A DNA stretch of 64,000 bases from an uncultured Verrucomicrobiota bacterium (GCA_942492905.1 OW818657.1:4096022-4160021), one strand, 5' to 3'. Shown: positions 27,104 to 50,800, counted from the stretch's first letter. The notes: generated by a model from the sequence alone, not told the origin. Translations and numbers: made by a program.

Positions 27104-28579
27104 CTAACTCAGCACCTCGCGGATGACGTGGCCCTCCACGTTCGTCAGGCGGCGCTGGATGCCGTTGTGCTCGAAAGTGAGCCGCTCGTGGTCAAGACCA
27201 AGCAGATGCAGGATGGTGGCATTGAAGTCGTAGAGCGGATGAATGTTCTCGATGGCGCGCTGTCCGAGTTCGTCGGTGACGCCGTGGCTCACCCCGGGCT
27301 TCACCCCGGCTCCGGTCATCCAGCACGTAAAACCGTCAGGGTTATGATCGCGGCCCTTGGCGCCTTTTTGGAAAAAGGGCATGCGGCCGAATTCGGTGCA
27401 CCAGACCACCAGGGTATCCTCCAGCAGGCCCCGCGCCTTCAGGTCGCGGATCAGGGCCGCGGCGGGTTGGTCGAGGATTTGAGCATGGACGTCATACTGC
27501 TCCTTCAGGGCGTTATGGCCGTCCCAGTTGAGCTGCCCACCGCTGGCGTAGGCACCATTGAACAGCTGCACAAAGCGGACGCCGCGTTCCACCAGACGCC
27601 GGGCGAGAATGCAGTTTTTCGCAAAAGCCGCCCTGTTCGGATTGGCCGCGTCGTCCGCCCCATAACTTTTCAGGATGTGGACAGGCTCGGTGCTGATATC
27701 GCTGATTTCAGGAACGCTGAGCTGCATCCGGGCGGCCAGTTCATAGCTGGCGATGCGGGCCGCGAGTTTGCCGTCGCCCGGATGCTGGTCCAGGTGGCGG
27801 GCATTCATTTGCTGCAGCAGTGACCGCGCGGCCTGATCGGCCTGCGGGGAGATGCCCGGCGCTGTGAGGTGGCGCACGGGGGATTTGGAACTCATGGTAG
27901 TGCCCTGAAAAGCCGCCGGCAGAAAGCCCGGACCCCAGTTGTTCATTCCATTCTGCGGCACCCCGCGCGGATCAGGGATCGCGACGTAGGATGGCAGTTC
28001 CTGACTCTCGCTGCCCAGGGCATAGGTGGCCCATGAGCCCAGGCTAGGAAAGCCATCGAGATTGAACCCGGTGGAGAGGAAGTTCTCGGCCGGGCCATGG
28101 GTGTTGCTCTTGCTGGTGAGGGAGTGGATGAAGGCGATATCGTCCGTCAGTTCCGCGAGATGCGGGATCAGATCGCTGACCCATTTGCCGGTTTTTCCCC
28201 GCTGCCGGAATCCGTATTGAGGCCGGGCAAGATTGCCTGCCGGGCCTTGGAAGGTCACCGCCGGGCCACCGGGCAACGGTTGGTTATCCCATTTGATCAG
28301 CTCCGGTTTGTAGTCCCAGGTTTCCAGCTGGCTGACAGCTCCGGCGCAAAAGATCACAATCACGTTTTTCGCTTTCGCCGGGAAATGCGGCTGCCTCGGC
28401 GCATACGGCCGGGCGGGATCAATCAGGGGCCCGGCCGGAGGGGCAGCGAGCAATCCATCAAGCCCGAGCAGATTTGTCAGGGCGATGGAACCGAGCGCGG
28501 TGGCGCTGCCGGACAGAAACTGGCGGCGGTCCAGCAGGGAGCGCCCGGCGGAAGTAATATATTCGGCCGGATGGTTCAT
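27104..28579 (-). CDS. DUF1501 domain protein (sulfatase-like fold, Tat signal)
   Basis: Start taken at ATG 28579 (MNHPAEY...), which forms an ATGA overlap with the upstream gene's stop. [17 protein letters not shown] is a twin-arginine signal. The C-terminal [10 protein letters not shown]...[10 protein letters not shown] matches DUF1501. Confidence 0.85.
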
Positions 28580-31500
28580 GGCAGAAAGAGGAATTCGTTC
28601 GAGTTGAAGAGGGCGCGGCACAGCGTGGCCAGTCCGTGTTCGATAACCACTGGTCCGGCGGCCCTGAGTTCATCGGCAGCAGGCCCGCGGTTCAGGACCA
28701 GTTGATAGGCGCGTTGTATTTGCGCCGCAGGCTCATCACCGGTTTCCCGGATCACGCGGGCGGCCAACGCGGCGGCGGCCTCCAGGGTGAAGCGGCTGTT
28801 GAAGAGGTTCAATGCTTGAATCGGGGTCGTGGATTCCCGGCGGCTGGCGGTGCTCTGACCGGCATCCGGGCAATCAAAGGCTCCAAAAACGGCTTCTGAT
28901 TCGCGGCGGACTTTGTGGGCGTAGATCATGCGCCGCAGGCCGTCGCCGGTGAAGGATTCCACGGGGTTGAATCCGCTCAGACCGCCGCGCTGGTCGAACA
29001 GGTTGAATCCCCGGCCATACATTTTCAAATCCAACTGCCCGCTGACAAAGAGGATGGCATCGCGGATGGATTCAGCCTCAAGCCGGCGCGGGGGAAAGCG
29101 CCACAGCAGGCGGGCATCCGCATCCTGGGCGGAGGCGGCCGGATTGGTCCCGGAGCCCTGACGGTAGGTGGCACTGAGCACCATGAGCCGGTGCAGGTGT
29201 TTCACCGACCAGCCGCTGCGGATGAATTCCTGCGCGAGCCAATCAAGCAGTTCCGGATGGGTCGGTTTGATGCCATTCAGGCCAAAGTCGCTGGCCGTCT
29301 GCACGAGGCCGGTGCCGAAATGTCCCTGCCAGATGCGGTTCACCATGACGCGGGCGGTCAGCGGATTTTGGGGGCTGGCGATCCATCCGGCCAGGGCTTG
29401 GCGGCGTGATCGTTCGGGCGCATCGTTTGCCAGGATTACCGCCCCCAGAGCGCCGGGCACGGCAGGTCCGACTTCGTCCCGGGGCTGTTCGGGGTCACCG
29501 CGGCTGAGCAGGCGGATCTTGTCAGGCTCACGGAATTTTCCGGCGAAAGCCAGTTGGCCGTTCTGCATGGCCTTGATCTGCTGCTCCAGCACTTGTTTTT
29601 CATCCATCAGGCGCGAGGCTACGGCGGCCTCCTCCGGGGACAGCCCCGCCAGGGTAAAGGACGCACCCACTTTCGCGCCTGCCACGAAAGGCTGGCGGTC
29701 GGTGGCATCGGCCACCAACTGCCAGGTTCCGTCTCTCCCGGCGATTTCGATGCGGTAATCCGTGGCCAAACGGTCCTGAAATTTCTCCTCACGGTCGCGG
29801 CCCCACACGACGCGGCTGATTTCCGCTTCGTGGGGAAACTCCAGCAGTACCCAGCCTTTCCCCGCTTCGTGGGACATCCAGCTCCGGGCATTGCCATAGC
29901 TGCCGTCGTTGACAAATCGCTGCTCATGCCGGTCCGCCACAGTGGTGTTGCCGGACGTGGTGACGCTGGATTCCCGGGCGATATTTTTTCCGTCGGAGGT
30001 GAAGACCTCCAGTTCATCCAGGCAGGGTTCGAGGTTGTTGGTGGCGAGAATGGTGAAGCGCAGCCGTTTGGTTTTCACGGCGGAAAAGCGGTCGGTATTG
30101 ACCTGCGCATTCACCGCGGGACGCTGCGGCAACCGCTGGACCAGCGTCTGCCATTGGTCAGGCTCCCGCGCAGCTTCGAGGGTAAAGGCCGTGGCGAGGC
30201 GGTCGTCGAATTTCCCCTCACGGTCACGGCCCCACACGATGTTGGCAATTCGGGCCGGCGCGGGAAGTTCGAACATTACCCAGCCGCGGCCGGCAGTATC
30301 GGACATCCAGCTGCGCGCGTTGCCGTAGTGGCCATCGTGGAGGTGTTCCAGCCGATGGCTGCCGGAAGTGCGGCTGCCGGAGGCGGAAACCCTGGTGCCG
30401 TGCGATGCCAGGGCCACGTTGTGCGGCGGCGTTCCGTCGGTGAAGATTTCGAATTCATCCACGCATGGTTCGATCAGGCCCAGGGTCGGATGCCGGTTGG
30501 TATCGTGGATGGTGAAGCGCACATACCGGACCTCCAGGGGCGGAAAGAATTCGGTGTTCAGCCTGGCATCTGTGACAGGATGAATCGCCTCCGAAGGATG
30601 GGCCAGCGGCACAAAAAGAGCCAGTTGACGGTCGATCTCAGCGACGCGTTGACGCTTCCCTTCCGCCTCAGCCTTCAGGGCCAGAGCCTCTGGAGTGCGC
30701 ATCTCGCGGTCTTCATATTCCACCCCGGCGAGGAAGGCCTGCATGGCATAATAATCCTTGGCGGTAATGGGATCGAATTTGTGATCATGGCACCTCGCAC
30801 AACCGACACTGAGACCGAGAAATGTCTGGCTGACATTCACCACCATTTCATCAAGCGAATCCTGACGGGCGAGGCGTTTGGACGGCTCGTCCGCCCCGAT
30901 TTGTCCTGGCAGGAGCACGGAAGCCGTGATCAAAAATCCTGTCGCCGCGTCTTCACCCAGGGCATCGCCCACAATCTGCTCGCGGATGAACCGGTCGTAG
31001 GGCGTGTCCTGGTTGAACGACCGGATCACATAATCGCGGTAGGGCCATGCATTGGGGCGCTCGGTATTGACTTCGAAGCCATGGGTGTCGGCATAACGCA
31101 CCACATCCAGCCAATGCTGCGCCCAGCGTTCTCCATAACGAGGGGAAGCGAGCAGGCGGTCCACCACTTGTTCGGGGGAATCCGGGACAAACCGGGCCAG
31201 TTCCTCCGGCGTGGGCGGCAGGCCGGTGAGGTCGAGCGTCACCCGGCGCAGCCACGTCAGCGGATCGGCGGCCGGCGACATCGTGAGGCCGTTTTCGTGC
31301 AGCCTGGCGGTGATGAAGGAATCAATGGAAGATTCCCCCGCGGCCACCGCAAGGGGCTGGAACGCCCAGTGGGCGCGCGGGTCGGCCAGCTTCACCTTGT
31401 CCACCCCGTCCGGCCAGAGCGCGCCTTCCCCGATCCAGTGTGTCAGGATCGCCACCTCAGCGGCGTCGAGCCGTGGTCCCTTGGGCGGCATCTGCTCATG

Positions 31501-31767
31501 GGGGTCAGCACTGGTCACGAAACGGAGCAGCGGACTCTCCTCTGGTTTTCCCGGCACCATCGGGGCCCCATGTTCATCGCCTCCTTTGAAGGCCGCGGCT
31601 TTCACATCCAGCCGCAGTCCTGACTTCTGCTTTTTCTCCCCGTGGCAATCCGTGCAGTGTTTCTCAAAAACAGGCCTCACGTCGCGGACGAAGTCCACCG
31701 GCGCCGCACGGAGTGCCGGCGCAACACCTCCGGCATAACAAAACAGGATGAATAAAATCTGACGCAC
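28576..31767 (-). CDS. PSCyt1 (CxxCH) / DUF1549 / two F5/8 type C (discoidin)-like domains / DUF1553 protein
   Basis: - N-terminus: [21 protein letters not shown] (planctomycete cytochrome c motif).
- DUF1549: [18 protein letters not shown].
- Two paralogous discoidin-like blocks: [12 protein letters not shown]...[20 protein letters not shown] and [12 protein letters not shown]...[20 protein letters not shown].
- DUF1553/PSD1-like C-terminus: [13 protein letters not shown]...[10 protein letters not shown]. Confidence 0.85.
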
Positions 31768-32600: not shown

Positions 32601-33332
32601 TCAGGCACGGCGGCGGCGGAGCAGTCCCAGCACGCCCATGGCGGCGAGACCGCAGGCACCCGGTTCCGGCACGGCCTGGAAGGTATCCCCCTGAAAGCCG
32701 GTGGCGGACCAGAAGGTGTCTACGGTAATTTTGTCGAAGGAGTTGTGACTTTGACCCACCGCAGGACTGGTCAGGGTAAAACTGTGGCTGGTGGCGGCAC
32801 TGTCAGGGATCTCCCACACGGCGACAAACAACGCGTTGGTATTGCTGCTGTTGGCTCCCACGGTCACCACCGGCGCCACTCCCGCGATGGAACTGAAAGT
32901 GAGTTCCGTGCCAAAACTGCCGCCGAAGCCGGAGGCGGAAATCCCCTGCGCGATAATGGTGGTGAACCCGGCCGCGAGGGCTCCCGCCACCGGGACGGTG
33001 ATCGTTTCGTTGGTTTGTCCGGTGCCGGAATAATAATTGCCGCTGCCGGTGATGTGATCCTGACCGTTATTCGTCACGATCCAGGCCCCGGAGACGGCGG
33101 AGCCCGGCAGGTCCGGAGTGGAATCGTTGATCGGGGAGGTGAAGTCCGGGGCATTGGGAGGATTGCCGGAAAAGGAATCCCATCCCGCGAAGCTGCTATT
33201 AGCTCCGCCCCGCCCGGTGGGAGTGATCAGGCCGGCCCCCGCAGAAAGGACAAAATTGGCGGCGGACGCGGAAGCGGTGGCAGCCAGCAGGGCCGCGAGA
33301 AGAAGGGAGGATGATTTCAATTTTGGTTTCAT
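32601..33332 (-). CDS. PEP-CTERM-anchored secreted protein (243 aa)
   Basis: Start at ATG 33332 (MKPKLKSSSLLLAALLAATASASA signal peptide). The C-terminus VPEPGACGLAAMGVLGLLRRRRA is PEP-CTERM. The ORF-track N-terminal extension to 33482 is rejected. Confidence 0.8.
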   Translation of the reverse strand: MKPKLKSSSLLLAALLAATASASAANFVLSAGAGLITPTGRGGANSSFAGWDSFSGNPPNAPDFTSPINDSTPDLPGSAVSGAWIVTNNGQDHITGSGNYYSGTGQTNETITVPVAGALAAGFTTIIAQGISASGFGGSFGTELTFSSIAGVAPVVTVGANSSNTNALFVAVWEIPDSAATSHSFTLTSPAVGQSHNSFDKITVDTFWSATGFQGDTFQAVPEPGACGLAAMGVLGLLRRRRA

Positions 33333-33547
33333 ATTGGATTGTCCAGGAGGAGAAGCAGCCAAGCGTGTGGGAATGACCGGAATGCCACCATAGCGGAACG
33401 GGCCGGTCCAATGCTGTGCCTGCAGTGCCGGAGTTTGGCCCGTGTTTGCGGGCGCCGGGAGGAAACCGCAAGCCACCACCAATCCGGAGCAACGGAGGAG
33501 CAGTAGCCCCGTTTTACCCTATCCGCCGGTCCCCGGCACATCTTTGC

Positions 33548-34474
33548 CTAACCCTGCTTCTCCACATGACTGCTCCATCGCGAGGGAGCGACGCCTTTTT
33601 CCTCGAGGAAGGCGCGGGAGAAGTGGCTCAGACTTTGATAGCCGACCTCCACGGCGGCTTCGCTGACATTGCAGCGGCCGGTGGCGATGAGATGGGCGGC
33701 GCGCTCAATGCGCTGACGGCGCAGCCATGCCGTCAGGGTGATGCCCTCCACCTGGGTGAAGGTGCGGGACAGGTGGTGGGGATTCACGCCGGCCAGCAGG
33801 GCGAGGGCCTCCAGCGGCGGAGGTTCATCCAGCGCAGCGAGGAGGGCGGCTTTGACTTTTGCCACGCGTTCCATGGCCAGCCATTTGGTGCGGGTGCAAA
33901 AAAGTTCTCGCCCAGCGGGGGGCGGAGTGAAGACTTTCTGCAGCAGAAAATCGGTCATTTTCGCTGTGGTCAGCAGCGTGCGGGCCGCCTCACAGAGGTG
34001 GGGCGCCAGCAGCCCCTGCGCCCACACTTTGTCCACGGGTTCCAGCGGCCGGGAGACCAGCGGAATCATTGGCACCGGCCCCAACAGCACCACCCGGAAA
34101 TCCGAAGGCAAATCCGGCCGCATCGTAGCCAGATTTTCCTTCAGCCAAGCCTCCGGAAAATGCAGGACAAGACATTCGTGCTCCGTGCCGGGATGACGCC
34201 CGGCATAAGCCAACCCCCGGCCCGAGGCGGGCCGCAGGCAACACATGGACCCCGGCCGCAGGGCCCGCCGGGTGCCGTCCTTCCATGTCAAAGAGGCTTC
34301 ACCGGTGAAATTGAGCAGCCAAATCACCCCGGTTTGAGGAAGCGCCCAGTCCGGCTGTCCCTCCGGCCCCGTACGCAACCAGCTGAAATACAACGATTCC
34401 AGAGAGTGGGAGAAAGAAGGGGACGGAGGAGACAAAATAGGCAACGGAATGAGAATGGTTCTCAGTATCGGCAT
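33548..34474 (-). CDS. AraC/XylS-family transcriptional regulator
   Basis: C-terminal double HTH: LALLAGVNPHHLSRTFTQVEGITLTAWLRRQRIERAAHLIATGRCNVSEAAVEVGYQSLSHFSRAFLEEKG. Start is uncertain (ATG 34474 or GTG 34555). Divergent from the 34622 operon. Confidence 0.85.
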   Translation of the reverse strand: MPILRTILIPLPILSPPSPSFSHSLESLYFSWLRTGPEGQPDWALPQTGVIWLLNFTGEASLTWKDGTRRALRPGSMCCLRPASGRGLAYAGRHPGTEHECLVLHFPEAWLKENLATMRPDLPSDFRVVLLGPVPMIPLVSRPLEPVDKVWAQGLLAPHLCEAARTLLTTAKMTDFLLQKVFTPPPAGRELFCTRTKWLAMERVAKVKAALLAALDEPPPLEALALLAGVNPHHLSRTFTQVEGITLTAWLRRQRIERAAHLIATGRCNVSEAAVEVGYQSLSHFSRAFLEEKGVAPSRWSSHVEKQG

Positions 34475-34621
34475 TTTCCCTTGAAAGCAAATGCGCACAT
34501 CCCCCTCCGCTTGCGCAAAATTGGCGGGGAAATGCGTTCCCCGGCCCTGCGGCACATCATGAGGCCAATACCCGGCACCCCACCGGCAGCAGAACGGCCC
34601 GGCGGCGGCTTAAGGTGCCGG

Positions 34622-36007
34622 ATGATTTTCCCCCGTTCCCTCTGGCCGCTCTGCTGCGGCTTGGCCAGCCTTTGCCTGCCGGGTCAGGCCGCCGCCCAGG
34701 CAATCGGCAATTTTGTGATTCCGGCACAGCGGGCCGGTGAAGGCACGCGTTTCAGCTATTGGGACCGCTTCGCCCTGCCCGCAGGCACCACGGCCAGCTA
34801 CTTTTTTGATCATTTCCCCAACCTCCTCAACCTGGGCGACGACGCCGATCCTCCCAATCCCTCCAATTGGAATACCAACGCCAGGCTCCAGCAGATCCTG
34901 ACGCCCCAGTGCTTCGTCACCAGTTCCGGGGCGTTGTATTCCTTTTCGGCCGCCACCGGATTTGAGATCCGCTATACCCACTCCGGAACCGATCCGGTGG
35001 CTGGGGCTGTATTCCAAATCCGCTACGCCGGATCCGCTCCGGAGACCGCATCGGTCCGGCTGCGCTATCAACCTGCCGGGGGCGGCGCTCCGGTGCTGCT
35101 GACTCCGGACTTCCGCGCGCTCGACGATCCCGGCACCGCGGGTTTTGCCGAACAGGTGATGCGCGGTTACGAGTGGGATCTGACCGGCCTGGGAGTCACC
35201 GATTATGTGATCCAGTTCTCTTCCGTCAGTTCATCCATGGCCTTTTACCAGGCGCAGTTGGATACCGCCCTTGGCATGACATTCCAACAGGCACTGGGAC
35301 ACTTGCTGAGCACCCGCCCGGCTCCGGGGCTGCGTTTCGGCAGCGCCGGCCGCGTGGAGGTGGAGGCTATGGAAAAGCGCTTTTTCACAGCGGGTCAGGA
35401 AGTGCCCCTGACCGCCACCGCCAGCACGGGATTCAACCACGTGGGATGGATTCGTCCTGACGGAACCCTGGTGGATTCCAGCGATGGATTGACCGTGACT
35501 TTCGCCACGCCCAATCCTGCTGATCTCGCGGTGGCGGCCATCTTCTCTCCGGCGTCCTGGCAAACCTTCCGCACCCATTGGTTCAACCACGCCAACAGCC
35601 TGACCGGGACGGCCGATGACTATCTCAACGACGCCATCAGCGGCCCTGCCGCCGACCCTGAAGGTGATGGCGCCAACAATTTCCACGAGTATGCCTTTGG
35701 CGGAAACCCTGGCCTGCCGGATGCCGCGCGACTGGCCCCGCAGGCGGTGACCCTCACCGAATCCGGGAACCGCTTTGCCGGGCTGACTTTCCGCCGGCGA
35801 GCCGGCGAAGGCGAGCTTTCCTACCAGGTGGAAATGAGTTCCGACCTTGCCTCATGGCAAGGCGGCACGGAAACAGAACCTGTCGTGTCCCAGACTGATG
35901 GGCCACTGGAAAGCGATGGCACCCGCACTGTCACCGCCCGCATGCTGACTCCGCTCACCCATTCCCCGGTTTTTCTGCGGGTCAAAGCCCTGCCCGCGAC
36001 TCCATGA
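34622..36007 (+). CDS. Secreted hypothetical protein (461 aa) with bacterial-repeat-like segment and a C-terminal module shared with other secreted proteins in this window
   Basis: ATG 34622 gives MIFPRSLWPLCCGLASLCLPGQAAAQA (signal peptide). GFNHVGWIRPDGTLVDSSDGLTVTF resembles a Listeria-Bacteroides-type repeat. DPEGDGANNFHEYAFGGNP, then SSDLASW...PVFLRVKA at the C-terminus. The ORF-track entry 33416..36007 is over-extended and lies antisense to the AraC gene. Confidence 0.75.
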   Translation: MIFPRSLWPLCCGLASLCLPGQAAAQAIGNFVIPAQRAGEGTRFSYWDRFALPAGTTASYFFDHFPNLLNLGDDADPPNPSNWNTNARLQQILTPQCFVTSSGALYSFSAATGFEIRYTHSGTDPVAGAVFQIRYAGSAPETASVRLRYQPAGGGAPVLLTPDFRALDDPGTAGFAEQVMRGYEWDLTGLGVTDYVIQFSSVSSSMAFYQAQLDTALGMTFQQALGHLLSTRPAPGLRFGSAGRVEVEAMEKRFFTAGQEVPLTATASTGFNHVGWIRPDGTLVDSSDGLTVTFATPNPADLAVAAIFSPASWQTFRTHWFNHANSLTGTADDYLNDAISGPAADPEGDGANNFHEYAFGGNPGLPDAARLAPQAVTLTESGNRFAGLTFRRRAGEGELSYQVEMSSDLASWQGGTETEPVVSQTDGPLESDGTRTVTARMLTPLTHSPVFLRVKALPATP

Positions 36008-39000
36008 AACGCTTGCCCCTCAAAACGAAATCGCGGGGTGCCGCGATCCTGATCGTGCTGGCATTGACCTCCCTGTTCACCGTACTGGTGGTCACGCTCC
36101 TGCAAACCGCCTCGGTGGAAAAGCAGATGGCGTATGGCAGCGCCGGACGGCAATCCGCCGAACGCCATGCCGATACCGCGCTGCAATTTGTCCTCGCCCA
36201 ACTCCGCACCGCCACCACCCTGGAGGCCTCCCCGGGCGTGCCCGCGCCATGGTCCAGCCAACCTGGCGGCATCACCGTGCATCAGATGGACGGGAGCGTG
36301 GGAGAAATCTACAAGCTTTACTCCGCCGCAACCGGCCGGGCGGCAGAGACGGCGGACCTGACAGACGACCTGCCGGTGGCATGGGACGCGGTGCCGGGTC
36401 AATACGTCGATTTGAATGCCCCGGCCATCACGGGCCGGGGCGATCAGGATTTTCCCATTGCCGATCCGAGGCTCGCCGGACCGGACGGCGCGGAAGGATT
36501 TGAATTCGACACCCCCAACGCGCCACGCGGCACCACCATGACAGTCCGCCCCGAGGAAAAGGGGCGCCGCCTTCCCATGCCGGTCCGCTGGATCTATCTA
36601 CTGCGCGACGGCACCCTTGGAGTCCTGGACGATACTGGCCGCTTCACCTCCGGACAGGGCCGCGCCACCACCGCCAATCCTATCACCGCGCGCATCGCAT
36701 GGTGGGCTGACGATGAATCCAGCAAAATCAATATCAATACCGCCGGGGAAGCCTCGCCCTGGGATACGCCCCGCCTGACCACGGAACAGGATGAAGCGCT
36801 GGCGAAATTCCAACCGATGCGCGGGGAGTATCACCGTTATCCCGGCCATCCTGCCGGGGTGAGCCTCAGCAGCGTGTTCTTCCCGGGCCACCGCTGGCTG
36901 CAGCCCGGGGATATCTTGCCACAGGGCGCTAAAGCCCTGAGTCCGCGCGCCGCAGAGGGCCTCTGGGCGCTCGCAGCCGGCACGGTGACCGACCCTGCCC
37001 TGACCTCTCTCGGCGGCACCCGGCAGCCGCCCGGACTGGAGCTGCCCATGGGCAACGGCGCGGAAAAACCCTGGCATCTTTATGCCTCCACCGGTGAACT
37101 GCGCTTCGCCTGGAACCGAGAGGAAAACAGACTCTTCCAGGATCACCCGGAAGCAGCCCGGAACCTCGACCGGGCGGATTTTCTCCTGACCACCGAAAGC
37201 CGGTCCCCCGAGACCACCCTGCAGGGCACTCCGCGGATCAGCCTCTGGCCGGTGCATGAGAGCGTGCAGCCCGGCCTTGGTTATTCCAGCCCGGTGCAGC
37301 GCGCTTCCGCCACCGACACCCTGCTGGCGTTGTGTTCCACCGCCGGGAACCGCCGGTATTATATGCAACGGGCCACTCCCGGAGACGGCTCGGCGGATTT
37401 CCAACGCACCGGCCTGGGAGCCAATGCCACCCTCTTCCAATGGATGACGCGCCTGCTGGAAAAGCCGGTGCCGGGTTTCCTGAAAGAAGGACTCCCTGCC
37501 AGCTTTGCTGACAAATACGGCACCGGCCCGGAAAGTGATAGCCAGAACATCGCCGCCCTGATGCTGGACTACATCCGCACCACCAATCTCGCCGATGGCG
37601 CCATCCCGGAGGAAAACCAATACTCAATCGTCTGCCCCGGCAACGAGACCGAAGGTTATGGCCAGATTTCCCCGCTCGATACCGCCCGCGGCACCACCGG
37701 AGCCGCCCGCTGGAAACCGGCTCAACTCCAAGCCGCCCGTGGCATGGGACGCATGCCCACCGTGCAGGGGGCGGTGCTGGTCCTGACCTGCCGTGCCATT
37801 TGTCAGGAGGATGGCACCATCATCGGCTCGCCCACCCCTGCCGGCTTGAAATCCCTGAAGAGACCGGGCAGCCGCGAAATGGAAGCGGCGATTCTTTTCG
37901 AAGGATTTGTCCCCGGCCAGGGCTGGGCGGAAAGCCGGCCCTACTGCACCCTCGTCGCGGGCGGCATCTCCCCCGGCAATCCCACCGATTTCAGCCTGCC
38001 CCTGCCCTCCATGCGGGTCAACGGGGCGGCTCTCACGCCTCAACCCATTGGCAATCTGACCCGTTTCAACGCCCTGATCACCAGCCGAGGCCGGGTGCCG
38101 GGAGGGTGGACAGCCTCCGGCGGAGCCACTGGCGCCCTCGCGGCCAATGCGGTGCTTTTTGCTCCTTTTGTGGTCACCCCCCAGGTGGATGATGGCGGGT
38201 TCCTGCAATTTGACGGCAGCAGCAGCGGCAGTGGCAGCCCGCCCGGATTCAAGGTCGGCCTCTTCGACGCCCCGGGCATTGAGGCCCGGAATGTGCCGGC
38301 CTCCCTGGGGGACCTGGTGCAGGTGGTGGAATTGAATTTCCCCAAACTCCCGACCCGGAATCTTCTCCTGCCGGAGTTGCCCCGGGATGGCACGCCTCCC
38401 ACCATGGAAGACCGGCTCATCAACGCGTTCGAAAAAGGAAAACCGCTCCTCTCAGCACAGGATATCGCGCAAAGCCTGGTGCTGGCCCACGGCGACAGCC
38501 GCCTCACCGCCGGACAACGCCTCGTGCCGTCCAGCAGCTTTACCGCCCACCCGGACTACGGCCGGGCTCCCCTCGCCCACCGGCTGAAAAATGAACCTGG
38601 CAGTACCGCCGGAGCCTCCAGCGCCGCGGGTTATTTCGAGGATATTCCACAGCCTGGAGCCGCCCGCCCTGACTTCCCGGTCAAGCCGTGGGACGACCGC
38701 ACCGATTTGGTGGTGGCTGGTCCCCAGGCCCGCCAATTCTCCCTGCAATCCATGGCCACCGTATTTTCCGCGGGCCGTCTTGATCAGGGCCGGCGCGGGC
38801 CCGCCAGTCCGGCCGAAACCGGCGATTTCGATACCGGCAGCGGGCGGGTCCCCGATGGCCCTTACGTCAACCGCGCCGACGATGGCGAGGTGCGTGGTTT
38901 TGCCGGAGGCGGCGTTCCCTATTTCGACGCTCCTCCCTCCGATCCCGGGAATGTCCCGCCTGTCAGCGCTGCCGCCTCCAGCCCTAACCGCCTCATGACC

Positions 39001-39831
39001 GGTCCCGGCATGTTCGGCAGTCTGCCCACCGGGGTGAAGGCCAACGTCCCCTGGCAGACCCTGCTCTTCCGCCCCTGGCTGGAACCAGTGACACCCCGGC
39101 GCCCGCCCCATTACGGCGCCTCCTGGCCCCAGGACCACCTGCTGCTCGACCTCTTCTGGATGCCGGTGGTGGAACCCTATGCCATCAGCACCCCGCTCGA
39201 AACCGCCGGCAAAATCAATCTCAACCACCAGCTCCTGCCCTTCCGCCACATCCACCGTGCCACCGCCCTGCACGCCCTCCTGAAAAGCGAGCGCATCATT
39301 GCCGTGGCCGACCGCGATGCCGGCAAGGTCAAGCTCGCCGGGGGCTTCAGCAATGCGGTCACCCGCCACCCCATCGATGCCACCGGCACCCTGAAGCTGT
39401 GGGAAGCCAGCCGCCTGGAAAATGCCCGGCCTTTCCTCTCTGCCAGCGAAGTCTGCACCCTGCCCCTCGTGCCCTCCGGCATCAATCCTGACAAAACCGT
39501 GCTTGCCTCCTGGTGGAACCAGCACCGCCTCACGGGGGACAATCTCAAGGAGCGCCCTTACACCAATCTGCACACCCGTCTCACCACCCGCAGCAACGCC
39601 TTCCGGGTCCATGTGATGTCGCAGTCGCTGCAGAAGGCCACTAGCACGGACCCGGCCCGGTGGGATGAAGCCCAGGACCAGACCGTGGCCACCTGGCGTG
39701 GCAGCGCCCTGATCTCGCGCCACGTCCGGGCGCAGGATCTGCCAGACTATGTGACTGCGGGGAACGCTCCCTCCGTAGACCACTTCTACTCATGGAGCAT
39801 CACCAGCCAGCGGAGCTTCGCGCCCCGCTGA
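36004..39831 (+). CDS. Verru_Chthon cassette protein A-like giant pseudopilin-like protein (1275 aa)
   Basis: ATGA overlap with the upstream stop (36004-36007). The N-terminus KSRGAAILIVLALTSLFTVLVVTLLQTASVEKQMA resembles the GspK/PilX-type minor-pseudopilin anchor. Size and N-terminus fit my memory of TIGR02600. Family assignment not confirmed by HMM. Confidence 0.7.
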   Translation: MKRLPLKTKSRGAAILIVLALTSLFTVLVVTLLQTASVEKQMAYGSAGRQSAERHADTALQFVLAQLRTATTLEASPGVPAPWSSQPGGITVHQMDGSVGEIYKLYSAATGRAAETADLTDDLPVAWDAVPGQYVDLNAPAITGRGDQDFPIADPRLAGPDGAEGFEFDTPNAPRGTTMTVRPEEKGRRLPMPVRWIYLLRDGTLGVLDDTGRFTSGQGRATTANPITARIAWWADDESSKININTAGEASPWDTPRLTTEQDEALAKFQPMRGEYHRYPGHPAGVSLSSVFFPGHRWLQPGDILPQGAKALSPRAAEGLWALAAGTVTDPALTSLGGTRQPPGLELPMGNGAEKPWHLYASTGELRFAWNREENRLFQDHPEAARNLDRADFLLTTESRSPETTLQGTPRISLWPVHESVQPGLGYSSPVQRASATDTLLALCSTAGNRRYYMQRATPGDGSADFQRTGLGANATLFQWMTRLLEKPVPGFLKEGLPASFADKYGTGPESDSQNIAALMLDYIRTTNLADGAIPEENQYSIVCPGNETEGYGQISPLDTARGTTGAARWKPAQLQAARGMGRMPTVQGAVLVLTCRAICQEDGTIIGSPTPAGLKSLKRPGSREMEAAILFEGFVPGQGWAESRPYCTLVAGGISPGNPTDFSLPLPSMRVNGAALTPQPIGNLTRFNALITSRGRVPGGWTASGGATGALAANAVLFAPFVVTPQVDDGGFLQFDGSSSGSGSPPGFKVGLFDAPGIEARNVPASLGDLVQVVELNFPKLPTRNLLLPELPRDGTPPTMEDRLINAFEKGKPLLSAQDIAQSLVLAHGDSRLTAGQRLVPSSSFTAHPDYGRAPLAHRLKNEPGSTAGASSAAGYFEDIPQPGAARPDFPVKPWDDRTDLVVAGPQARQFSLQSMATVFSAGRLDQGRRGPASPAETGDFDTGSGRVPDGPYVNRADDGEVRGFAGGGVPYFDAPPSDPGNVPPVSAAASSPNRLMTGPGMFGSLPTGVKANVPWQTLLFRPWLEPVTPRRPPHYGASWPQDHLLLDLFWMPVVEPYAISTPLETAGKINLNHQLLPFRHIHRATALHALLKSERIIAVADRDAGKVKLAGGFSNAVTRHPIDATGTLKLWEASRLENARPFLSASEVCTLPLVPSGINPDKTVLASWWNQHRLTGDNLKERPYTNLHTRLTTRSNAFRVHVMSQSLQKATSTDPARWDEAQDQTVATWRGSALISRHVRAQDLPDYVTAGNAPSVDHFYSWSITSQRSFAPR

Positions 39832-39868
39832 TTCCCCCTGACATCCGACGATTCCAATTCCACTCCCC

Positions 39869-40849
39869 ATGAAAACCACCCTGCTTACCCTCACCTGCAC
39901 CGCCTTCTCCCTGTTCCCGCTCCACGCCGGCGAGCCCTCTCCCCAGGACCGCCAGGCCATCCTCGCCATGGCCGGCGAATTCGCCGTCACCTTCCACTTC
40001 CAGGAAACTCTCAGCCTGCAAAAGGACTACACGGCGAAGACCGAAGTCTACGAGGAGGATGCCCATGAACTGGTGGTCGTCACCGAAGACTCCTCCCGCC
40101 GCATTGCCCTGCAGCACCTGCTGGTGGCAGGAGACATGGTGATCAAACACTGGTCGCAGATCTGGACCTTTGAAGACACCCGCCTCTGCGAATTCCAAGG
40201 CCACAACTCCTGGACCCTGCGCGATCTCAAACCGGAGGAAACCACCGGCACCTGGTCCCAGCAGGTCACCCAAGTGGATGATAGTCCGCGTTATGAAAGC
40301 TTCGGCCGCTGGGTGCACCGCGGCGAAATCAGTGAGTGGACCAGCGCCGATACCGCCCGTCCCCTGCCGCGCCGCGAGCATACCAAACGCAAAGATTATG
40401 ATATCCTCGGCGGCACCAACCGCCACACCATCACCCCGCACGGCTGGGAGCATGAGCAGGACAACACCAAGCTCCAGTTGCGCGACGGAAACCGGGTGCC
40501 CCTCGCCCGCGAGTCCGGCCTCAATACCTACCGCCGCGTGACCGATTTCAATTTCCAGCCCGCCCGCAACTTCTGGGCCGCCGAAGCTTCATTCTGGAAA
40601 CAGGTCACCGCCGCCTGGGAAGACGTGCAGCAGCGCCGCACGGAAATCACCATCAAGGACAAATTCGACGTCCCTGCCCTGCGCCGCGCCATTACCGCCA
40701 TCCAGGAACGCCAGCAGCGCGAACTGAAGGGCAAGGTTGAGGAAGTGATTACCGGCTTCCTCGACGGCAAACCCGCCCCAGCCCCCGGGAATGCCACGCC
40801 AGCAGCGCCCGGGGCCCCGGCACCTGCCTCTGCGGCGGTATCCAAGTAG
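39869..40849 (+). CDS. Secreted hypothetical protein (326 aa)
   Basis: MKTTLLTLTCTAFSLFPLHA signal peptide. Conserved-looking core (DRQAILAMAGEF...QHLLVAGDMVIKHWSQIW...VDDSPRYESFGRWVH...RPLPRRE...NRHTITPHGWEHEQDN). Pro/Ala-rich tail. Lies 38 nt after the previous stop. Family not assigned. Confidence 0.75.
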   Translation: MKTTLLTLTCTAFSLFPLHAGEPSPQDRQAILAMAGEFAVTFHFQETLSLQKDYTAKTEVYEEDAHELVVVTEDSSRRIALQHLLVAGDMVIKHWSQIWTFEDTRLCEFQGHNSWTLRDLKPEETTGTWSQQVTQVDDSPRYESFGRWVHRGEISEWTSADTARPLPRREHTKRKDYDILGGTNRHTITPHGWEHEQDNTKLQLRDGNRVPLARESGLNTYRRVTDFNFQPARNFWAAEASFWKQVTAAWEDVQQRRTEITIKDKFDVPALRRAITAIQERQQRELKGKVEEVITGFLDGKPAPAPGNATPAAPGAPAPASAAVSK

Positions 40850-40925
40850 CTTCCACCCCTATCCGGGAATGCGGATCCATGGGATTGACAAATCACGACA
40901 ACGGTGTCGTTATTTATACCCAAGT

Positions 40926-42242
40926 ATGATTCCGCATCGTCCTCATCCCCTGCCGCTGCTCATTCTGACCGGCCAGGCCCTCATGGCATGGCCCGTGGCC
41001 GCGCAGACCATTGCCTACGAGGAAGCCCCGCACCACTACTGGAGTGCCCCCTTGGCCGATCCGGGCACGACCCTCGATGCGGAGTTGCAGAGCGGGAAGT
41101 TCACCCTTCCCGCCGGCAGTGATCTGGAAGCCATGCGGGCGGTGCTGCGGCAGATGAAAATCCCTGAATCCAGCCAGACCCTGGTGTTTTCCAAAACCAG
41201 TGTGCAGAAGGACCGGATCACCCCATGGAATCCCCGAGCGCTCTATTTCAATGACGAATCCTACGCGGGCTGGGTGCCCGGCGGCATGATGGAGTTTGCG
41301 ACCATCGACCCGGTGCTGGGCCCCATCTTCCATCTGCTGGATTTCCACCGCTCGGACCGCACCGTCCCCCGGCTGGACCGTCCCCAGAATTGCCTCGACT
41401 GCCATGGCGGCAACATGACCAACCGCGTCCCCGGAGTCATGATCCGCTCGGTCTTCCCTGACAAAGAGGGCAGCGTGCTGTTTCAGGCGGGGACTTCCCT
41501 GATCGACCACACCAGTCCGGTCAATATCCGCTGGGGGGGATGGTTCGTCACGGGAGAGCATGGGAACGTGGTGCACCGGGGCAACGCCATCGCCCAGGAT
41601 CAGGAGGGCACCATTACCTTGGATACCCGCCAGGCCTCCAACCTGCAGAATCTCGAACGGTTTTTCCCGGTCAAAAACTACCCCCGCCCCACCAGCGATA
41701 TTGTCAGCCTGATGGTGCTCGAACATCAGGTCGCCCTGACCAGCCGCCTCGTCGAGGCCTCCTATGATGTGCGGGCCGCCATCATCCGCCAAAAGGCCCT
41801 CCGCGAGGAGTTGGGTGATCCGCCCACGGAAGCCTTGGTCGGCACCTCCAAAATCATTGCCGACAGCCACGCGGGCAAAATTCTCGATGCCCTCCTTTTC
41901 AAGGACGAAGCCGAACTGCCGGAGGGAGGCATCCGCGGCGATCTGGAATTCCAGCGCGATTTTGTCGCGGGACATCCCATCGCGGCCGATGGCAAGTCCC
42001 TCACGGAGTTTCATCTGGGGAACCGCCTGTTCCGCCTCCGTTGCAGCTATCTCATCTACAGCCGCTTGTGGACGGCCCTGCCCCGTCCGTTTCTGGACTT
42101 GCTATACGGCAGGCTCCACCTCATCCTGACGGCAGAACAGCCCCCGGCCGGCTACCAATATTTGAGCAAACCGGAACGTGCCGAGATTCTCCGCATCCTC
42201 AAGGACACCCATCCGGACCTGCCGGCTTCATGGAAGTCCTGA
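40926..42242 (+). CDS. Hypothetical secreted protein with a single CxxCH heme-binding motif (438 aa)
   Basis: Start at ATG 40926 (MIPHRPHPLPLLILTGQALMAWPVAAQ). RPQNCLDCHGGNMTNRVPG contains CxxCH. The antisense ORF 40914..42014 is treated as a shadow ORF. Confidence 0.7.
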   Translation: MIPHRPHPLPLLILTGQALMAWPVAAQTIAYEEAPHHYWSAPLADPGTTLDAELQSGKFTLPAGSDLEAMRAVLRQMKIPESSQTLVFSKTSVQKDRITPWNPRALYFNDESYAGWVPGGMMEFATIDPVLGPIFHLLDFHRSDRTVPRLDRPQNCLDCHGGNMTNRVPGVMIRSVFPDKEGSVLFQAGTSLIDHTSPVNIRWGGWFVTGEHGNVVHRGNAIAQDQEGTITLDTRQASNLQNLERFFPVKNYPRPTSDIVSLMVLEHQVALTSRLVEASYDVRAAIIRQKALREELGDPPTEALVGTSKIIADSHAGKILDALLFKDEAELPEGGIRGDLEFQRDFVAGHPIAADGKSLTEFHLGNRLFRLRCSYLIYSRLWTALPRPFLDLLYGRLHLILTAEQPPAGYQYLSKPERAEILRILKDTHPDLPASWKS

Positions 42243-42425: not shown

Positions 42426-43457
<1,032 letters not shown>

Positions 43458-43478
43458 GTCAATCCCGTTCCGCTCAAG

Positions 43479-43898
43479 ATGAAATATCCCGATGGCTCAG
43501 CAATGAAGGAGGGAGACCTGATCTGGTGGAATGAGGGAGGGTGCGTTGGGCATGTTCAGAAAATCATCGAGGCACCGGAAGAATGGGTGGATTGGGGATG
43601 GAAAGGCCCAGCTGCCTACTTCGGAAACCTTCATCCATACGATCCCACCACCGTGGGGGTAGGCTATCCGCTCGAGTGCTTTGAAGATGAAGGTATTACG
43701 AAGCTTTCTGATTCCGGACGTTCAGCATTCGCCGACGCGTTGGAAGTGGCCCTTTCCTTCGCGCCCGCTGAAGCAAAAGGATGCCCTTACAGCGTCGGGA
43801 CACGCGGTGAAAACAACAGGATAGTGGAATGGATTTTTCAATTTTGGCTCCCTGACAGCGACCCGGCAGTTATTGCCGTCCCGGCAGACGTCTCGTAA
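43479..43898 (+). CDS. Hypothetical small Trp-rich protein (139 aa), compositionally atypical
   Basis: ATG lies 21 nt after the moxR stop. In the first 20 codons I count 11/20 G/C at third positions and 30/60 G/C overall, against 19/20 G/C third positions in 20 codons counted near the moxR 3' end. No family recognised. Confidence 0.6.
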   Translation: MKYPDGSAMKEGDLIWWNEGGCVGHVQKIIEAPEEWVDWGWKGPAAYFGNLHPYDPTTVGVGYPLECFEDEGITKLSDSGRSAFADALEVALSFAPAEAKGCPYSVGTRGENNRIVEWIFQFWLPDSDPAVIAVPADVS

Positions 43899-43942
43899 CC
43901 TCCGCCCTGGACGTCCCCGTCCGTTTTGCGTAGGTCCCGCCC

Positions 43943-44680
43943 ATGAGGAAAAAGGCCAAGGCGAAAACAAAAGCAAAAGCACCGCGCAGTTCAAAATTCT
44001 GGCCAGGACTGTTATTGGGCGGAGTCATCGCTGCGTCGGCCGTCCACTTCGTTCCTTCGTGGCTCAAGGACCGGAAGCAAACCTCCGGGCAGGAATCGAA
44101 AGGGACATCCGCCACCCCTTCCAAAGCCAAAAGTGCCGGCAGTGTCAGGGACAGTGCGGCGGCCCCCGCCAAAGCTCCAACACAACCTCAGACGCCCCCG
44201 GTTCCCAAAGCCGCCGGGGGACTTCCTTATTTCCGCGACCCCGCCCTCGCCGCCAACCTGCTGACACGGCTGGGCATGGGCGAATCCTATCCCGGCAGCC
44301 TGTTGTGGAAAAAAGCGGACGCCCTCGGTTGGAATGCGTTCGGAGTGCTCGCCACGTCCGGATCCCAGGTATCGACCACGGGGACGGCCGGGAATACCGT
44401 CACCTGCCTGCTGGAATCCACCCGGGAGGATCGGGTGGAAGCCCTCCGGCTGATCGCCAATGTCTTCGATCCCAAAGGAAACCAGGCCACCATGGCCCGC
44501 TTCAAATCCCTGGCCCGGGCCGTGCTGAATGAAACCCGCTGCCCCGTCACCCGCCAGTTCCTCGACGCCATCGACGGCAACTTGAGCCTGCAGACGGAAT
44601 CCCCCGAAGCCCGCTTCACCCTCGCCCAAACGCCCCTCGCTCCCGGCACCAGCTGGGAGTTGACCGTGAAATCCCGGTAG
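43943..44680 (+). CDS. Hypothetical membrane-anchored protein (245 aa)
   Basis: Lys-rich N-terminus (MRKKAKAKTKAKA), one TM helix (FWPGLLLGGVIAASAVHFV), a low-complexity linker and a ~140-aa globular C-terminus. No family recognised. Confidence 0.6.
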   Translation: MRKKAKAKTKAKAPRSSKFWPGLLLGGVIAASAVHFVPSWLKDRKQTSGQESKGTSATPSKAKSAGSVRDSAAAPAKAPTQPQTPPVPKAAGGLPYFRDPALAANLLTRLGMGESYPGSLLWKKADALGWNAFGVLATSGSQVSTTGTAGNTVTCLLESTREDRVEALRLIANVFDPKGNQATMARFKSLARAVLNETRCPVTRQFLDAIDGNLSLQTESPEARFTLAQTPLAPGTSWELTVKSR

Positions 44681-47573: not shown

Positions 47574-47819
47574 CCGGCCCCTCCTGGAGGGGCTGAAACA
47601 CTTTTGCGTGGGAATTCCGGGAGAAGTCGAAAAGGGCTATTCCGGGCGAGGCCGGTGCAGACGGTGAGGCGGACCTCACCTGGAAGCCGCCCCAGCCCTG
47701 CCAATGCTCCTTGGCCGCCCGAACGGATCCCGTCCGCAGGTTCCGTCTCGCCATGCTTGCGCATTCCGCCTAATTGTGGAAACTGCGCCTCCCTTTCCCC
47801 CTTTTTCCGTCATTTTCCC

Positions 47820-50800
47820 ATGCCCGCCTCCAAAGCTTCCTCCCCTGCCCCCGCAGCTGCCGCGACCTCTTCCGCCATCCGCCCCATCAAAAAACTCATG
47901 GTGGCCAACCGTTCGGAAATCGCCATCCGCGTGATGCGCGCCGCCACGGAACTGGGCATCCGCACCGTGGCCATCTACGCGAACGAGGACCGCTTCTGCC
48001 CCCACCGCTTCAAAGCCGATGAGGCCTATCAGCTCGACGCCACCAAGGGCCCGCTCGGCGCCTACCTCGACGTCGAAGGCATCGTCGCCCTCGCCAAGGA
48101 AAAAGGGGTGGACGCCATCCACCCCGGTTATGGTTTCCTCTCGGAAAACCCCGACTTCGCCGCCGCCTGTGCCCGGGAGGGGATTATTTTCATCGGTCCG
48201 GACAGTAAAGTCCTCGACCGCATGGGCGACAAAACCGCGGCCCGCGCTGTGGCCGAGAAACTGAAAGTCCCTACCCTCCAAGGCACCGAAGAGCCGGTCG
48301 ATAAAAAGAAGGACGCCATGATCGCGGCCAAAAAGATCGGCTTCCCGCTGATCATCAAAGCGGCCTTTGGCGGCGGGGGCCGCGGGATGCGGGTGGTGCG
48401 CGAAGCCAAGGATCTTGATGCCCTTCTTGACGAAGCCCAGACCGAGGCCAAACGCGCCTTTGGCAATGGCGCCGTTTTCCTCGAAAAATTCGTCGGCAAA
48501 GCCAAACACATCGAAGTCCAGATTCTCGCCGACAAACACGGCCACATCCTGCACCTGCACGAACGCGACTGCTCGGTGCAACGGCGCCACCAGAAGGTCA
48601 TCGAGCAGGCCCCCAGCTATGGGATTGATCAGAAAATCATCGACGCCCTCTGTGCTTCGGCGGTGAAAATCGCCCGCGAAGTCGACTACACCCACGCCGG
48701 CACCGTGGAATACCTGGTCGATGTGGAAAGCGGCGAATGGTTTTTCATCGAGATGAATCCCCGCATCCAGGTGGAACACACCGTCACCGAGGAAGTCACC
48801 GGCATCGACATCGTGCGCAGCCAGATCCTGATCGCCCAGGGGTATCAACTCCATGAGGAACCCCTCGGACTGCCGGCCCAGGACAAGGTCGAGAAAAGTG
48901 GTTATGCCATCCAATGCCGCATCACCACCGAAGACCCCGCCAACAATTTCACCCCCGACTTCGGCAAGATCCTGACCTACCGCAGTGCCGGTGGATTCGG
49001 GGTCCGGCTCGATGGCGCCCTCGGCACCAACAATGCCGTCATCACGCCCTATTACGACTCCATGCTGGTCAAGGTCACCTGTTATGGACGCACCTACGAA
49101 CAGAGTCTCAACCGGATGGACCGCGCCCTCCGCGAGTTCCGCATCCGCGGGGTCAAAACCAACATTCCCTTCCTCGAAAACGTCATTTCCCATCCCGTAT
49201 TCCGGGCCGGTGAAGCCACCACCCGCTTCATCGACACCAATCCCCAGCTATTCCAATTCGAGACCCGCAAGGACCGCGCCACCAAGCTCCTCAGCTACCT
49301 CGCGGACGTCACGGTGAACGGCAACCCCAACGCCAAAGGCTGGAAACCCGCCAAACCCTTCACCTATCCGGCCATTCCCAAGGCGCACGACTTCTCCGTG
49401 GCCACCCCGCCGCCGCCCGGCACCAAACAACTCCTCACCGAACTCGGGCCGGAGAAGTTCGCCCAGTGGATCGGCCAGCAGAAACGCCTCCTCCTCACCG
49501 ACACTACCTTCCGCGATGCCCACCAGTCCCTGCTTGCCACCCGGGTGCGCAGTTACGACATGCTGGCGGTGGCCGAAGCCGTGGCGCACCGCGCTCCGCA
49601 GCTCTTCAGCATGGAAATGTGGGGCGGCGCCACCTTCGATACCGCGATGCGGTTTCTCCGCGAGTGTCCGTGGGAGCGCCTGCGCCAGCTCCGGGAAAAG
49701 ATCCCCAATCTGTGTTTCCAGATGCTCTTCCGCGGCTCCAACGCCGTGGGTTACACCAACTATCCTGACAATGTCGTCCGCGGGTTCATCAAACATGCCG
49801 CCGAAACCGGGATGGACATCTTCCGCATCTTCGACAGCCTGAATTACCTGCCCAACCTCACCGAAGCCATGGCCGCGGTGCGGGAGGAAACCCAGTCCAT
49901 CTGTGAAGGCACGATTTGCTACACCGGCGACATCCTTGATCCGAAACGCGACAAGTATTCCCTGACGTATTACATCAAGCTGGCCAAAGAGCTGGAAAAG
50001 ATGGGCGCCCACACGCTCTGCATCAAGGACATGGCCGGACTCTGCCGTCCCTTTGCCGCCAAGAAGCTGGTCAAAGCCCTCAAGGAGGAAATCGGCCTGC
50101 CAATCCACTTCCACACCCACGACACCAGCGGCATCAATGCCAGCAGCATCCTGAGCGCCTCCGAAGCCGGGGTGGATATCTGCGATGCCGCCATCTCGTC
50201 CATGTCCGGCTGCACCAGCCAGCCGAATCTGAACAGCATCGTCGCCGCGCTCCAGCACACCCCGCGCGCCACCGGACTCGATCCCGATGCCCTCCAGGAG
50301 TTCAGCGATTACTGGGCCCACGTCCGCAGCTTCTACAAACCGTTCGATACCGCCGAGCCGTATGGCACCGCCGAAGTGTATCTCCACGAGATGCCCGGTG
50401 GCCAATACACCAATCTCAAGGAACAGGCCGAGTCCATGGGCATCGGCCACCGCTGGCCGGAAATCGCCCGCATGTATGCCGAGGTGAATCTGTTGTTCGG
50501 CGATATCGTCAAGGTCACGCCTTCCAGCAAAGTGGTGGGTGACATGTGCATGTTCCTCATCTCCCGCGGGGTCAAACCCGGCGATGCCCGCAGCTACCTC
50601 GACACCCTGCCCTCCGGCACCAGCTTCCCGGAAAGCGTTATTGATATGCTCCAGGGCGGCCTTGGCCAACCCATGGGCGGCTGGCCGGCCGATGTGCAGA
50701 AGATCATCCTCGGCAAGAAAAAACCCTTCACCAACCGTCCCGGCGAACGCGCCGAAAAAGTGGATCTCGACAAAACGCGCCACGAGGTTGCCAAAGTGGT

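Follow-up and report, generated by a model that had tools for sequence, protein, structure and literature searches.

What is a giant pseudopilin-like protein for when it is encoded without pilin-like partners? The question arises from a 64-kb stretch of DNA from an uncultured Verrucomicrobiota bacterium (GCA_942492905.1 OW818657.1:4096022-4160021; hereafter the window), in which a Verru_Chthon cassette protein A of 1275 amino acids (aa) is encoded at 36004–39831 (+ strand) among genes for secreted proteins, with a regulator of the AraC/XylS family divergent from them. Protein A (TIGR02600) is normally accompanied by proteins B, C and D, which bear prepilin-type N-terminal methylation signals. 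A preliminary description of the locus, made from the sequence alone, had proposed that A is here decoupled from B–D and combined with different secreted partners under a dedicated regulator. Comparison with related loci shows that this A belongs to a monophyletic sub-clade in which the adjacent B, C and D genes have been lost and a secreted protein, g1, has been gained and is translationally coupled to A. The module, which is conserved in one Verrucomicrobiales lineage, comprises the AraC-family regulator, a PEP-CTERM jelly-roll protein, g1, A and a DUF6607 protein of the RhuH type.

A protein A encoded apart from B, C and D

That the 1275-aa protein is a protein A, as had been supposed, is borne out by its score against the TIGR02600 model, 750.5 bits with a curated cutoff of 332.3 (E 4e-225). 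A copy from a metagenome-assembled genome (MAG), P0121, a member of the same cluster at an identity of at least 90%, has already been named Verru_Chthon cassette protein A by NCBI. The leader is of the GspK type, KSRG followed by AAILIVLALTSLFTVLVVTLL: a short basic peptide, with glycine at −1, leads into a hydrophobic helix that has no Glu5, and prepilin-type cleavage is predicted after Gly12 (KSRG↓AAILIVLAL). Alignment by hhalign of the A family profile with GspK of E. coli K-12 pairs the two proteins at the N-terminal anchor (Prob 68–81, E 1.3e-5 to 4.9e-5), the consensus being rGvALv.VLavl.Lm in the A family and QRGVALLIVLMLLALM in GspK. There are also weak matches to PilX_N and to the GspK model NF037980 (residues 11–72 only, E 3.5e-4, 20.2 bits), in keeping with the GspK/PilX-type anchor read from the bare sequence. 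Every A protein of 80 related loci, whether orphan or not, begins with a leader and anchor of the form (R/K/Q)G(V/A/I)A(L/I)..VL. On sequence, the protein is solidly placed as a true member of TIGR02600 with a GspK-type N-terminal anchor.

The bulk of the protein is another matter. An AlphaFold2 (AF2) model of residues 76–1275 has a predicted local distance difference test (pLDDT) score of 91 and a predicted template modelling (pTM) score of 0.92. A Foldseek comparison of this model with the Protein Data Bank (PDB), the method used for all fold comparisons here, gave no significant match. The top match, itself not significant, is GspK from the GspK-I-J complex (3ci0_K, E 0.89), with XcpK also listed, and sequence searches of the PDB with the A profile and with the A N-terminus returned nothing useful. 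Protein A is therefore GspK-like at its anchor, with a bulk fold that has no solved counterpart.

The absence of B, C and D was assessed in several ways over the 64 kb of the window, in which genes are taken as open reading frames (ORFs) and to which the absences given in this paragraph refer. A six-frame search for the prepilin motif produced no candidates. Hidden Markov models (HMMs) of B, C and D were built from prepilin ORFs flanking A in other genomes, sorted into three size classes and named by means of NCBIfam in the canonical locus of Verrucomicrobium sp. BvORR034 (L070), in which the three genes beside A are TIGR02598 (B, ~150 aa), TIGR02599 (C, ~360 aa) and TIGR02596 (D, ~196 aa). 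All the canonical B, C and D proteins held out as controls are found by these models (E 1e-27 to 1e-98), which have no match at E ≤ 10 among 673 ORFs of the window, whether next to the operon or further away. Of ~45 window ORFs scanned with Pfam and NCBIfam, none matched an ATPase, platform protein, secretin or prepilin peptidase of a type II secretion system (T2SS) or type IV pilus (T4P), and g1 and the two genes downstream of A, g3 and g4, match no NCBIfam model. The motif, HMM and family scans agree with the earlier observation that the neighbours of A lack prepilin signals and that the window lacks a secretion ATPase and secretin. It is confirmed that A is uncoupled from B, C and D within the window.

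What is missing may be judged from the canonical set. Canonical D shows an affinity to GspH, and canonical C to both GspJ and GspI. With affinities to GspH, GspI and GspJ among B, C and D, the cassette A-B-C-D mirrors the K-I-J-H set, and we infer from these sequence affinities that it would be the counterpart of the GspH-I-J-K tip of the T2SS (PDB 3CI0), canonical A being joined, like GspK, by three small pseudopilins. The A of the window shares with GspK its leader and helix (RG↓VALL..VL, without Glu5), and GspK is its best, though not significant, fold match; it differs in being four times larger, with a bulk that matches nothing in the PDB. No gsp genes were found near A in the window scans.

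The orphan state is not peculiar to this genome. A scan of species-representative genomes, limited to a single genome for each species, turned up at least 581 loci with A relatives, of which 80 were kept, and a neighbour-joining tree of 81 A proteins (the window and these 80 loci) groups the window A with those of L002, L024, L003–L009 and L027; L082, L084 and L086 were added to the clade by exact-protein look-ups. All 14 loci of the clade, the window included, are orphan and all have a g1 homologue. The B/C/D models match in none of the 14, as against 55 of 68 other loci, and the other loci without a match are mostly short contigs. Fisher's exact test gives p = 9e-9, or p = 3e-7 for loci with full flanks, both values being overstated because the loci are related by descent. 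The decoupling proposed for the window is thus upheld throughout its clade, within the 64 kb here and within the locus flanks elsewhere. Two true orphans lie outside the clade, L050 and L053 (A at 10001 in each), where the 10-kb flanks of A are free of B, C and D, so other orphan arrangements exist; L053 comes from the same MAG as L024. As the arrangement described here is both conserved and specific to one A clade, it is a real variant.

The secreted partner, its paralogue and the regulator

Gene g1 (34622–36007, +) encodes a 461-aa protein with a Sec signal peptide. It had been described as a secreted repeat protein; the secretion signal is there, but the AF2 model (pLDDT 87) shows three different beta-sandwich domains rather than repeats. 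These are a jelly-roll, an InlB-B-repeat/Ig-like domain (Flg_new_2 match, E 3.8e-5) and a calcium-type motif, DPEGDGANNFHEYAFGGNP, followed by a C-terminal sandwich. Foldseek relates the model to the ligand-binding domains of Eph receptors, to CBM6 and to the jelly-rolls of GlfT2, with E down to 5e-7; a sequence search of the PDB with the g1 profile gave nothing useful. The family is small (35 database clusters), and its N-terminal and middle domains were found only with this clade of A in the 86 loci compared.

A g1 homologue lies upstream of A in all 13 related loci as well as in the window. It is immediately upstream in the window and in six of the 13; elsewhere the gap is filled by an extended g1 in five loci of the branch termed type II (L004–L009) or measures ~130–150 nucleotides (nt) (L003, L027). 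The ATG of A at 36004 was found, as described, within an ATGA overlap with the g1 stop codon (ctccATGAaac), and this 4-nt overlap is kept in the window, L001, L084 and L086. The type II branch has no DUF6607 gene and a different order: a protein of ~1250 aa, then the extended g1 of ~1200 aa, then A. The first of these has three copies of the PEP-CTERM-type jelly-roll together with He_PIG Ig repeats (for example, L004 2628–13876), and in L004 and L005 the leader of A has lost the glycine at −1.

These facts bear on one of the alternatives, that the cassette is merely dispersed: A would be canonical in function, B, C and D would be at another locus, and g1, the PEP-CTERM protein and the DUF6607 protein would be no more than co-regulated neighbours. 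In keeping with this, A retains the residues invariant throughout its family along with the pseudopilin anchor, genomes of the phylum have several cassettes (there are three A loci in CP170506.1), and in another Verrucomicrobium the substrate loci have pseudopilin genes dispersed among them (PMC13274419). Against it, g1 is confined to this A clade, present in every member of it and usually joined to A by an overlap that implies coupled translation; the link between A and DUF6607 also survives changes of gene order (see below). We consider dispersal unlikely, if still to be reckoned with.

The C-terminal module of g1 (residues 338–461, window 35633–36004), a DxDxDG calcium-type motif with a beta-sandwich, has a wider distribution than the rest of the protein. 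It is found again at the very C-terminus of large, unrelated secreted proteins, with occurrences in L018 (6238–8667, −), L034 (7045–9705, −), L040 and L070; among such proteins are those of 810–890 aa (hhalign Prob 98, E 1.9e-13) that stand first in the B-C-D operons which, in sister clades, are divergent from A. Its place at the end of these leading proteins links it to pseudopilin sets, and, judged by this distribution, a sorting or docking function connected with pseudopilin cassettes is possible. A weak match to it (E 1.7e-4) was also found in a 2791-aa protein of the window (672–9047, −), which has four lamin-tail (LTD) domains and a CotH kinase-like domain.

On the far side of the regulator, downstream of its gene, lies a gene for a secreted, probable PEP-CTERM protein (32601–33335, −) of ~244 aa, counted from Met50 of the ORF 32601–33482, with a single jelly-roll and the tail VPEPGACGLAAMGVLGLLRRRRA. 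Its score on PF07589 (E 0.0015, 19.0 bits) is just under the cutoff of 20.7, a value that its orthologue in L084 reaches (20.7 bits). The operons of L084 and L086 are led by PEP-CTERM proteins of 227–235 aa, to which the window protein is 41–50% identical. Its domain is related to the N-terminal jelly-roll family of g1 (hhalign Prob 90.5, E 1.4e-6), and tblastn finds it confined to loci of the orphan clade. By profile comparison and distribution, then, it is a paralogue of the first domain of g1 and a fifth member of the module.

The divergent AraC-family gene was found as placed, at 33548–34474 (−), with matches to HTH_18 (E 8.7e-21) and HTH_AraC (E 9e-13). Against the PDB, the protein matches over its DNA-binding domain only, the N-terminal ~200 aa being without a known family. 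Orthologues of 35–77% identity occur in 10 of the 13 related modules. The gene is not visible in L002 and L007, which begin at g1, and 6.4 kb upstream of g1 in L009 has no match. The first 13 codons of the window ORF are not conserved and overlap a palindrome, TGAGAATGGTTCTCA (34450–34464), which lies at the 5′ end of the AraC gene and upstream of the called starts of its orthologues. The alignment of the orthologues, together with these facts, suggests that translation possibly starts at TTG 34435 rather than ATG 34474, which would make the spacer ~186 bp instead of 147 bp. Each of the six type I loci with a divergent AraC gene has the palindrome, TGAGA-N5-TCTCA with a variable centre, and this conservation points to a regulatory site, perhaps an operator; the spacer of type II loci bears a different one, TTGCGAAATCGCAA.

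Within the spacer, the preliminary description had picked out a repeated AAATGCG and a palindrome. Both are present, AAATGCG at 34489 and 34530 and TTGCGCAA at 34511, and the repetition of a 7-mer within 147 bp is, by our estimate, about a coin-flip by chance. The orthologous spacers keep TTGCGCAAAATT and the second copy of AAATGCG, 21 bp downstream, and not the first copy (34489). The conserved box, TTGCGCAAAATTGGCGGGGAAATGCG (34511–34536), has two TGCG cores 21 bp apart. In the form TTGCG(C/A)(A/G)A(A/G)ATT with TGCG or TGCC 21 bp downstream, it is found in the window, L024, L082 and L084 and, in part, in L086 and L003. The spacing, two helical turns between half-sites, suits an operator of the AraC type, and this box is a candidate for binding by the regulator. 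Closer to g1, ~45 nt upstream of its start, a GGCAC motif (34574–34589, +) occurs in 10 of 10 orthologous spacers examined (L024, L082, L084, L086, L003–L006 and L008 among them), with one-base variants GACAC in L024 and L008 and GGCAT in L005. It resembles the −24 element of a sigma-54 promoter, a reading not adopted because the −12 GC is kept in only some of the loci. A scan for consensus promoters and terminators gave counts not above those in shuffled sequence.

The RhuH-type protein and the genes around the module

Beginning 37 nt after A, g3 (39869–40849, +) encodes a secreted protein of 326 aa that belongs to DUF6607 (PF20311, E 8e-72; cutoff 27 bits). In the PDB it matches 8xjc_A, a haemophore, by phmmer over residues 11–293 with 38% identity (E 2.6e-56). 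This is RhuH of Riemerella anatipestifer, in which His96 ligates the haem iron, while R143, Y144, R170, R183 and Q198 hold the propionates; the substitution H96A lowers the affinity for haem about a million-fold, and the protein leaves the cell in outer-membrane vesicles (PMC11967795). In g3, His94, Arg141, Tyr142, Arg169 and Gln197 align with His96, Arg143, Tyr144, Arg170 and Gln198 of RhuH, and these five are invariant in 11 sequences (g3 and ten homologues). Five of the six haem contacts, the axial histidine and four of the five propionate residues, are thus kept, the equivalent of R183 being Gly, with an invariant arginine nearby (Arg185). RhuH and its characterized homologues are all from Flavobacteriales. 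The neighbour of g3 is a giant pseudopilin. By its homology, g3 is a RhuH-type haemophore homologue, and a haem role for the locus is possible.

DUF6607 adjoins A in seven modules. It follows A in the window, L001/L024, L082, L084, L086 and L003; in L027 it is divergent upstream and the AraC gene has moved downstream of A, an order which shows that the link between A and DUF6607 survives rearrangement. As the type II branch lacks the gene, haem is not the core function of the A–g1 pair and would be an add-on.

The usual arrangement is for a haemophore gene to stand beside one for a TonB-dependent receptor, and DUF6607 does so in Luteolibacter sp. LG18, Rubritalea tangerina and Haloferula luteola. 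The operons concerned lie at 116–4144 of L087, 5461–8924 of L088 and 8001–13631 of L089, and in Haloferula luteola the gene is also near those for CbiX and PepSY_TM proteins. Two of the operons include a protein with a CBM96 domain, which was compared with g1 and the PEP-CTERM protein as a possible relative and proved unrelated. From its gene content, the DUF6607–receptor operon looks like a conserved putative locus for uptake of haem or another tetrapyrrole, undescribed for the phylum. In the loci seen, DUF6607 pairs either with a TonB-dependent receptor (L087–L089) or with g1 and A, never with both.

This either-or pairing invites the idea that A has left the filament altogether and serves as a membrane-anchored or surface scaffold, A and g1 forming a stand-alone complex with which the haemophore would be partnered in place of the receptor. 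The consistent absence of B, C and D from the clade speaks for it, as does the loss of the glycine at −1 in L004 and L005. Yet A has no likeness to a transporter, half of the clade has no DUF6607, and most members retain RG↓(V/A/L)A, a leader of the kind typical of GspK processed by the peptidase. To our minds a stand-alone complex is improbable. The same pairing can be accommodated with a filament: the tip, A with g1, of a T2SS- or T4P-like filament would take the place of the receptor beside the haemophore, making a nutrient-capture organelle. If true, the extension and retraction of the filament would be coupled to the capture of haem or haemoproteins; this is an attractive notion to which we attach little weight.

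Downstream of g3, beginning after a further 76 nt, g4 (40926–42242, +) encodes a secreted protein of 438 aa with a CxxCH motif (NCLDCHGG). The preliminary description had taken g1, A, g3 and g4 as four same-strand genes in tight array. Their positions are correct save that the two gaps are 37 and 76 nt rather than 38 and 77, but the array does not hold together as a unit, and where g1, the AraC gene and DUF6607 proved to be conserved companions of A, the CxxCH protein did not. No g4 homologue was found in any of 13 orthologous modules, and the gene after DUF6607 differs from one module to another (that of L082, which encodes 429 aa and was considered as a counterpart, is unrelated). The family of g4, whose members are secreted proteins of ~430 aa, is very large: a threshold of E ≤ 1e-3 takes in 2662 representative clusters, and one of E ≤ 1e-30 takes in 592. 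No relative was found in Pfam, NCBIfam or the PDB. In L021 and L022, homologues sit between genes for a hydrolase and chorismate synthase. The invariance of C156, C159, H160 and H217 across the family suggests, on sequence, an unnamed family like the mono-haem c-type cytochromes. The proposal that g1, A, the DUF6607 protein and the CxxCH protein form one adhesion or filament system had in its favour the shared strand and close spacing, and the last two proteins could both concern haem. The absence of g4 from the orthologous modules, its membership of a huge independent family, and a TTGACA hexamer (at 40885) with a weak hairpin in the 76-nt gap all tell against a four-gene operon, which we consider very unlikely; g4 is adjacent to the module and probably a separate unit.

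The window has a G+C content of 61–65%, and its proteins, with PSCyt1/PSCyt2/PSD1, DUF1501, PEP-CTERM and PATR domains, are in character for the Verrucomicrobia and other PVC bacteria. At 27104–31767 (−), a PSCyt1/PSCyt2/PSD1 protein of 1063 aa, which also has F5/8 type C domains, precedes a DUF1501 protein, the two making a common pair of the planctomycete type. Two ORFs (139 and 245 aa) without a Pfam match come after a gene for a MoxR-type AAA_3 ATPase (42426–44680, +), the group lacking the usual DUF58 and VWA partners. The family match of the pyruvate carboxylase ORF (47604–51350, +) begins only at residue 93, and its listed TTG start is probably ~90 codons too early. A PADLOC scan of the window for anti-phage defence systems found no matches.

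A proposed filament tip device and its alternatives

What, then, might the module do? The identities of its components are solid and the mechanism must be inferred from them. We prefer to see in it a tip device switched by the AraC regulator and serving a filament with machinery encoded at other loci, possibly tied in this organism to haem capture, and we would give this a probability of roughly 0.4. Protein A would insert in the inner membrane by its N-terminal helix, be cut after Gly12 by a prepilin peptidase and cap a filament of the T2SS or T4P kind; genes for its motor, secretin and small minor pseudopilins would lie elsewhere in the genome. Such a division has a precedent in another Verrucomicrobium, where dispersed pseudopilin genes are served by a single T2SS cluster (PMC13274419). 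Docked on A, g1 would act as a tip-associated ligand-binding subunit, and the PEP-CTERM paralogue would hold the same binding domain on the cell envelope. The RhuH-like protein would bind haem via His94, and its presence in the type I branch suggests haem or a haemoprotein as the target, the device there being probably tied to scavenging of haem or iron. The regulator would activate the divergent operon through the box formed by TTGCGCAAAATT and the TGCG downstream of it.

The role suggested for g1 is modelled by analogy on PilY1, which is carried by the minor pilins of type IV pili. As in minor pilin operons of the fimU-pilVWXY1E type, a large Sec-dependent protein that is not a pilin is tightly linked to a tip-type pseudopilin, and the beta-sandwich domains of g1 would be suited to binding. 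Homology between g1 and PilY1 is not detectable, g1 has neither a vWA domain nor a beta-propeller, and its association with A is deduced from the genes.

A tip may also serve secretion. Protein A with g1 could be a cargo-specific secretion cap, a pseudopilus tip which allows a general T2SS to export the DUF6607 and PEP-CTERM proteins. All the partners have Sec signal peptides, the GspK-capped tip of the T2SS is established to face the secretin and substrates (PDB 3CI0), and substrate-induced pseudopilin genes are present in Verrucomicrobial utilization loci (PMC13274419). RhuH, however, is carried out in vesicles and not by a T2SS (PMC11967795), and PEP-CTERM proteins are thought to be handled by exosortases. 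Such a cap seems to us a rather poor prospect.

Several facts weigh against the tip device. The 64 kb read contain neither filament machinery nor B, C or D. Protein A fails as a member of the GspK family proper because its 20.2 bits on NF037980 fall far short of the cutoff of 130, and its likeness to GspK is confined mainly to the N-terminal 25–60 residues, the match in fold being at E 0.89. The tree that defines the clade is a neighbour-joining tree without support values, and its loci are not independent samples. Control by the AraC protein is argued from the position of its gene and from conserved motifs only. As for haem, DUF6607 is not found in the type II half of the clade, and no TonB-dependent receptor or haem importer was found in the window.

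Compared with the canonical Verru_Chthon A-B-C-D cassette, the module has the same full-length A (750 bits), with the shared N-terminal anchor and invariant residues, but in place of B, C and D it has g1, its PEP-CTERM paralogue, the AraC regulator and, in half of the clade, DUF6607. No published study of the Verru_Chthon cassette, TIGR02600 or DUF6607 was found in the literature searched; the family of A has been named but not studied. New here are a clade of orphan A proteins, the partner g1 that is theirs alone, and the occurrence of a haemophore homologue beside a pseudopilin rather than a receptor.

Verru_Chthon cassettes, of which the species-representative scan counted at least 581 relatives of A, are among the most multiplied gene sets of the Verrucomicrobia, and the present clade reveals that A is separable from its three pilin partners and can be joined instead to a regulator and a secreted binding protein dedicated to it. 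The haemophore family, hitherto described from Flavobacteriales only, now reaches a second phylum, in which it is found with one or the other of two partners. With three to five genes, the clade offers a simple inducible system in which to dissect the function of A, and the homology to RhuH gives it a concrete phenotype to test, that of haem or iron.

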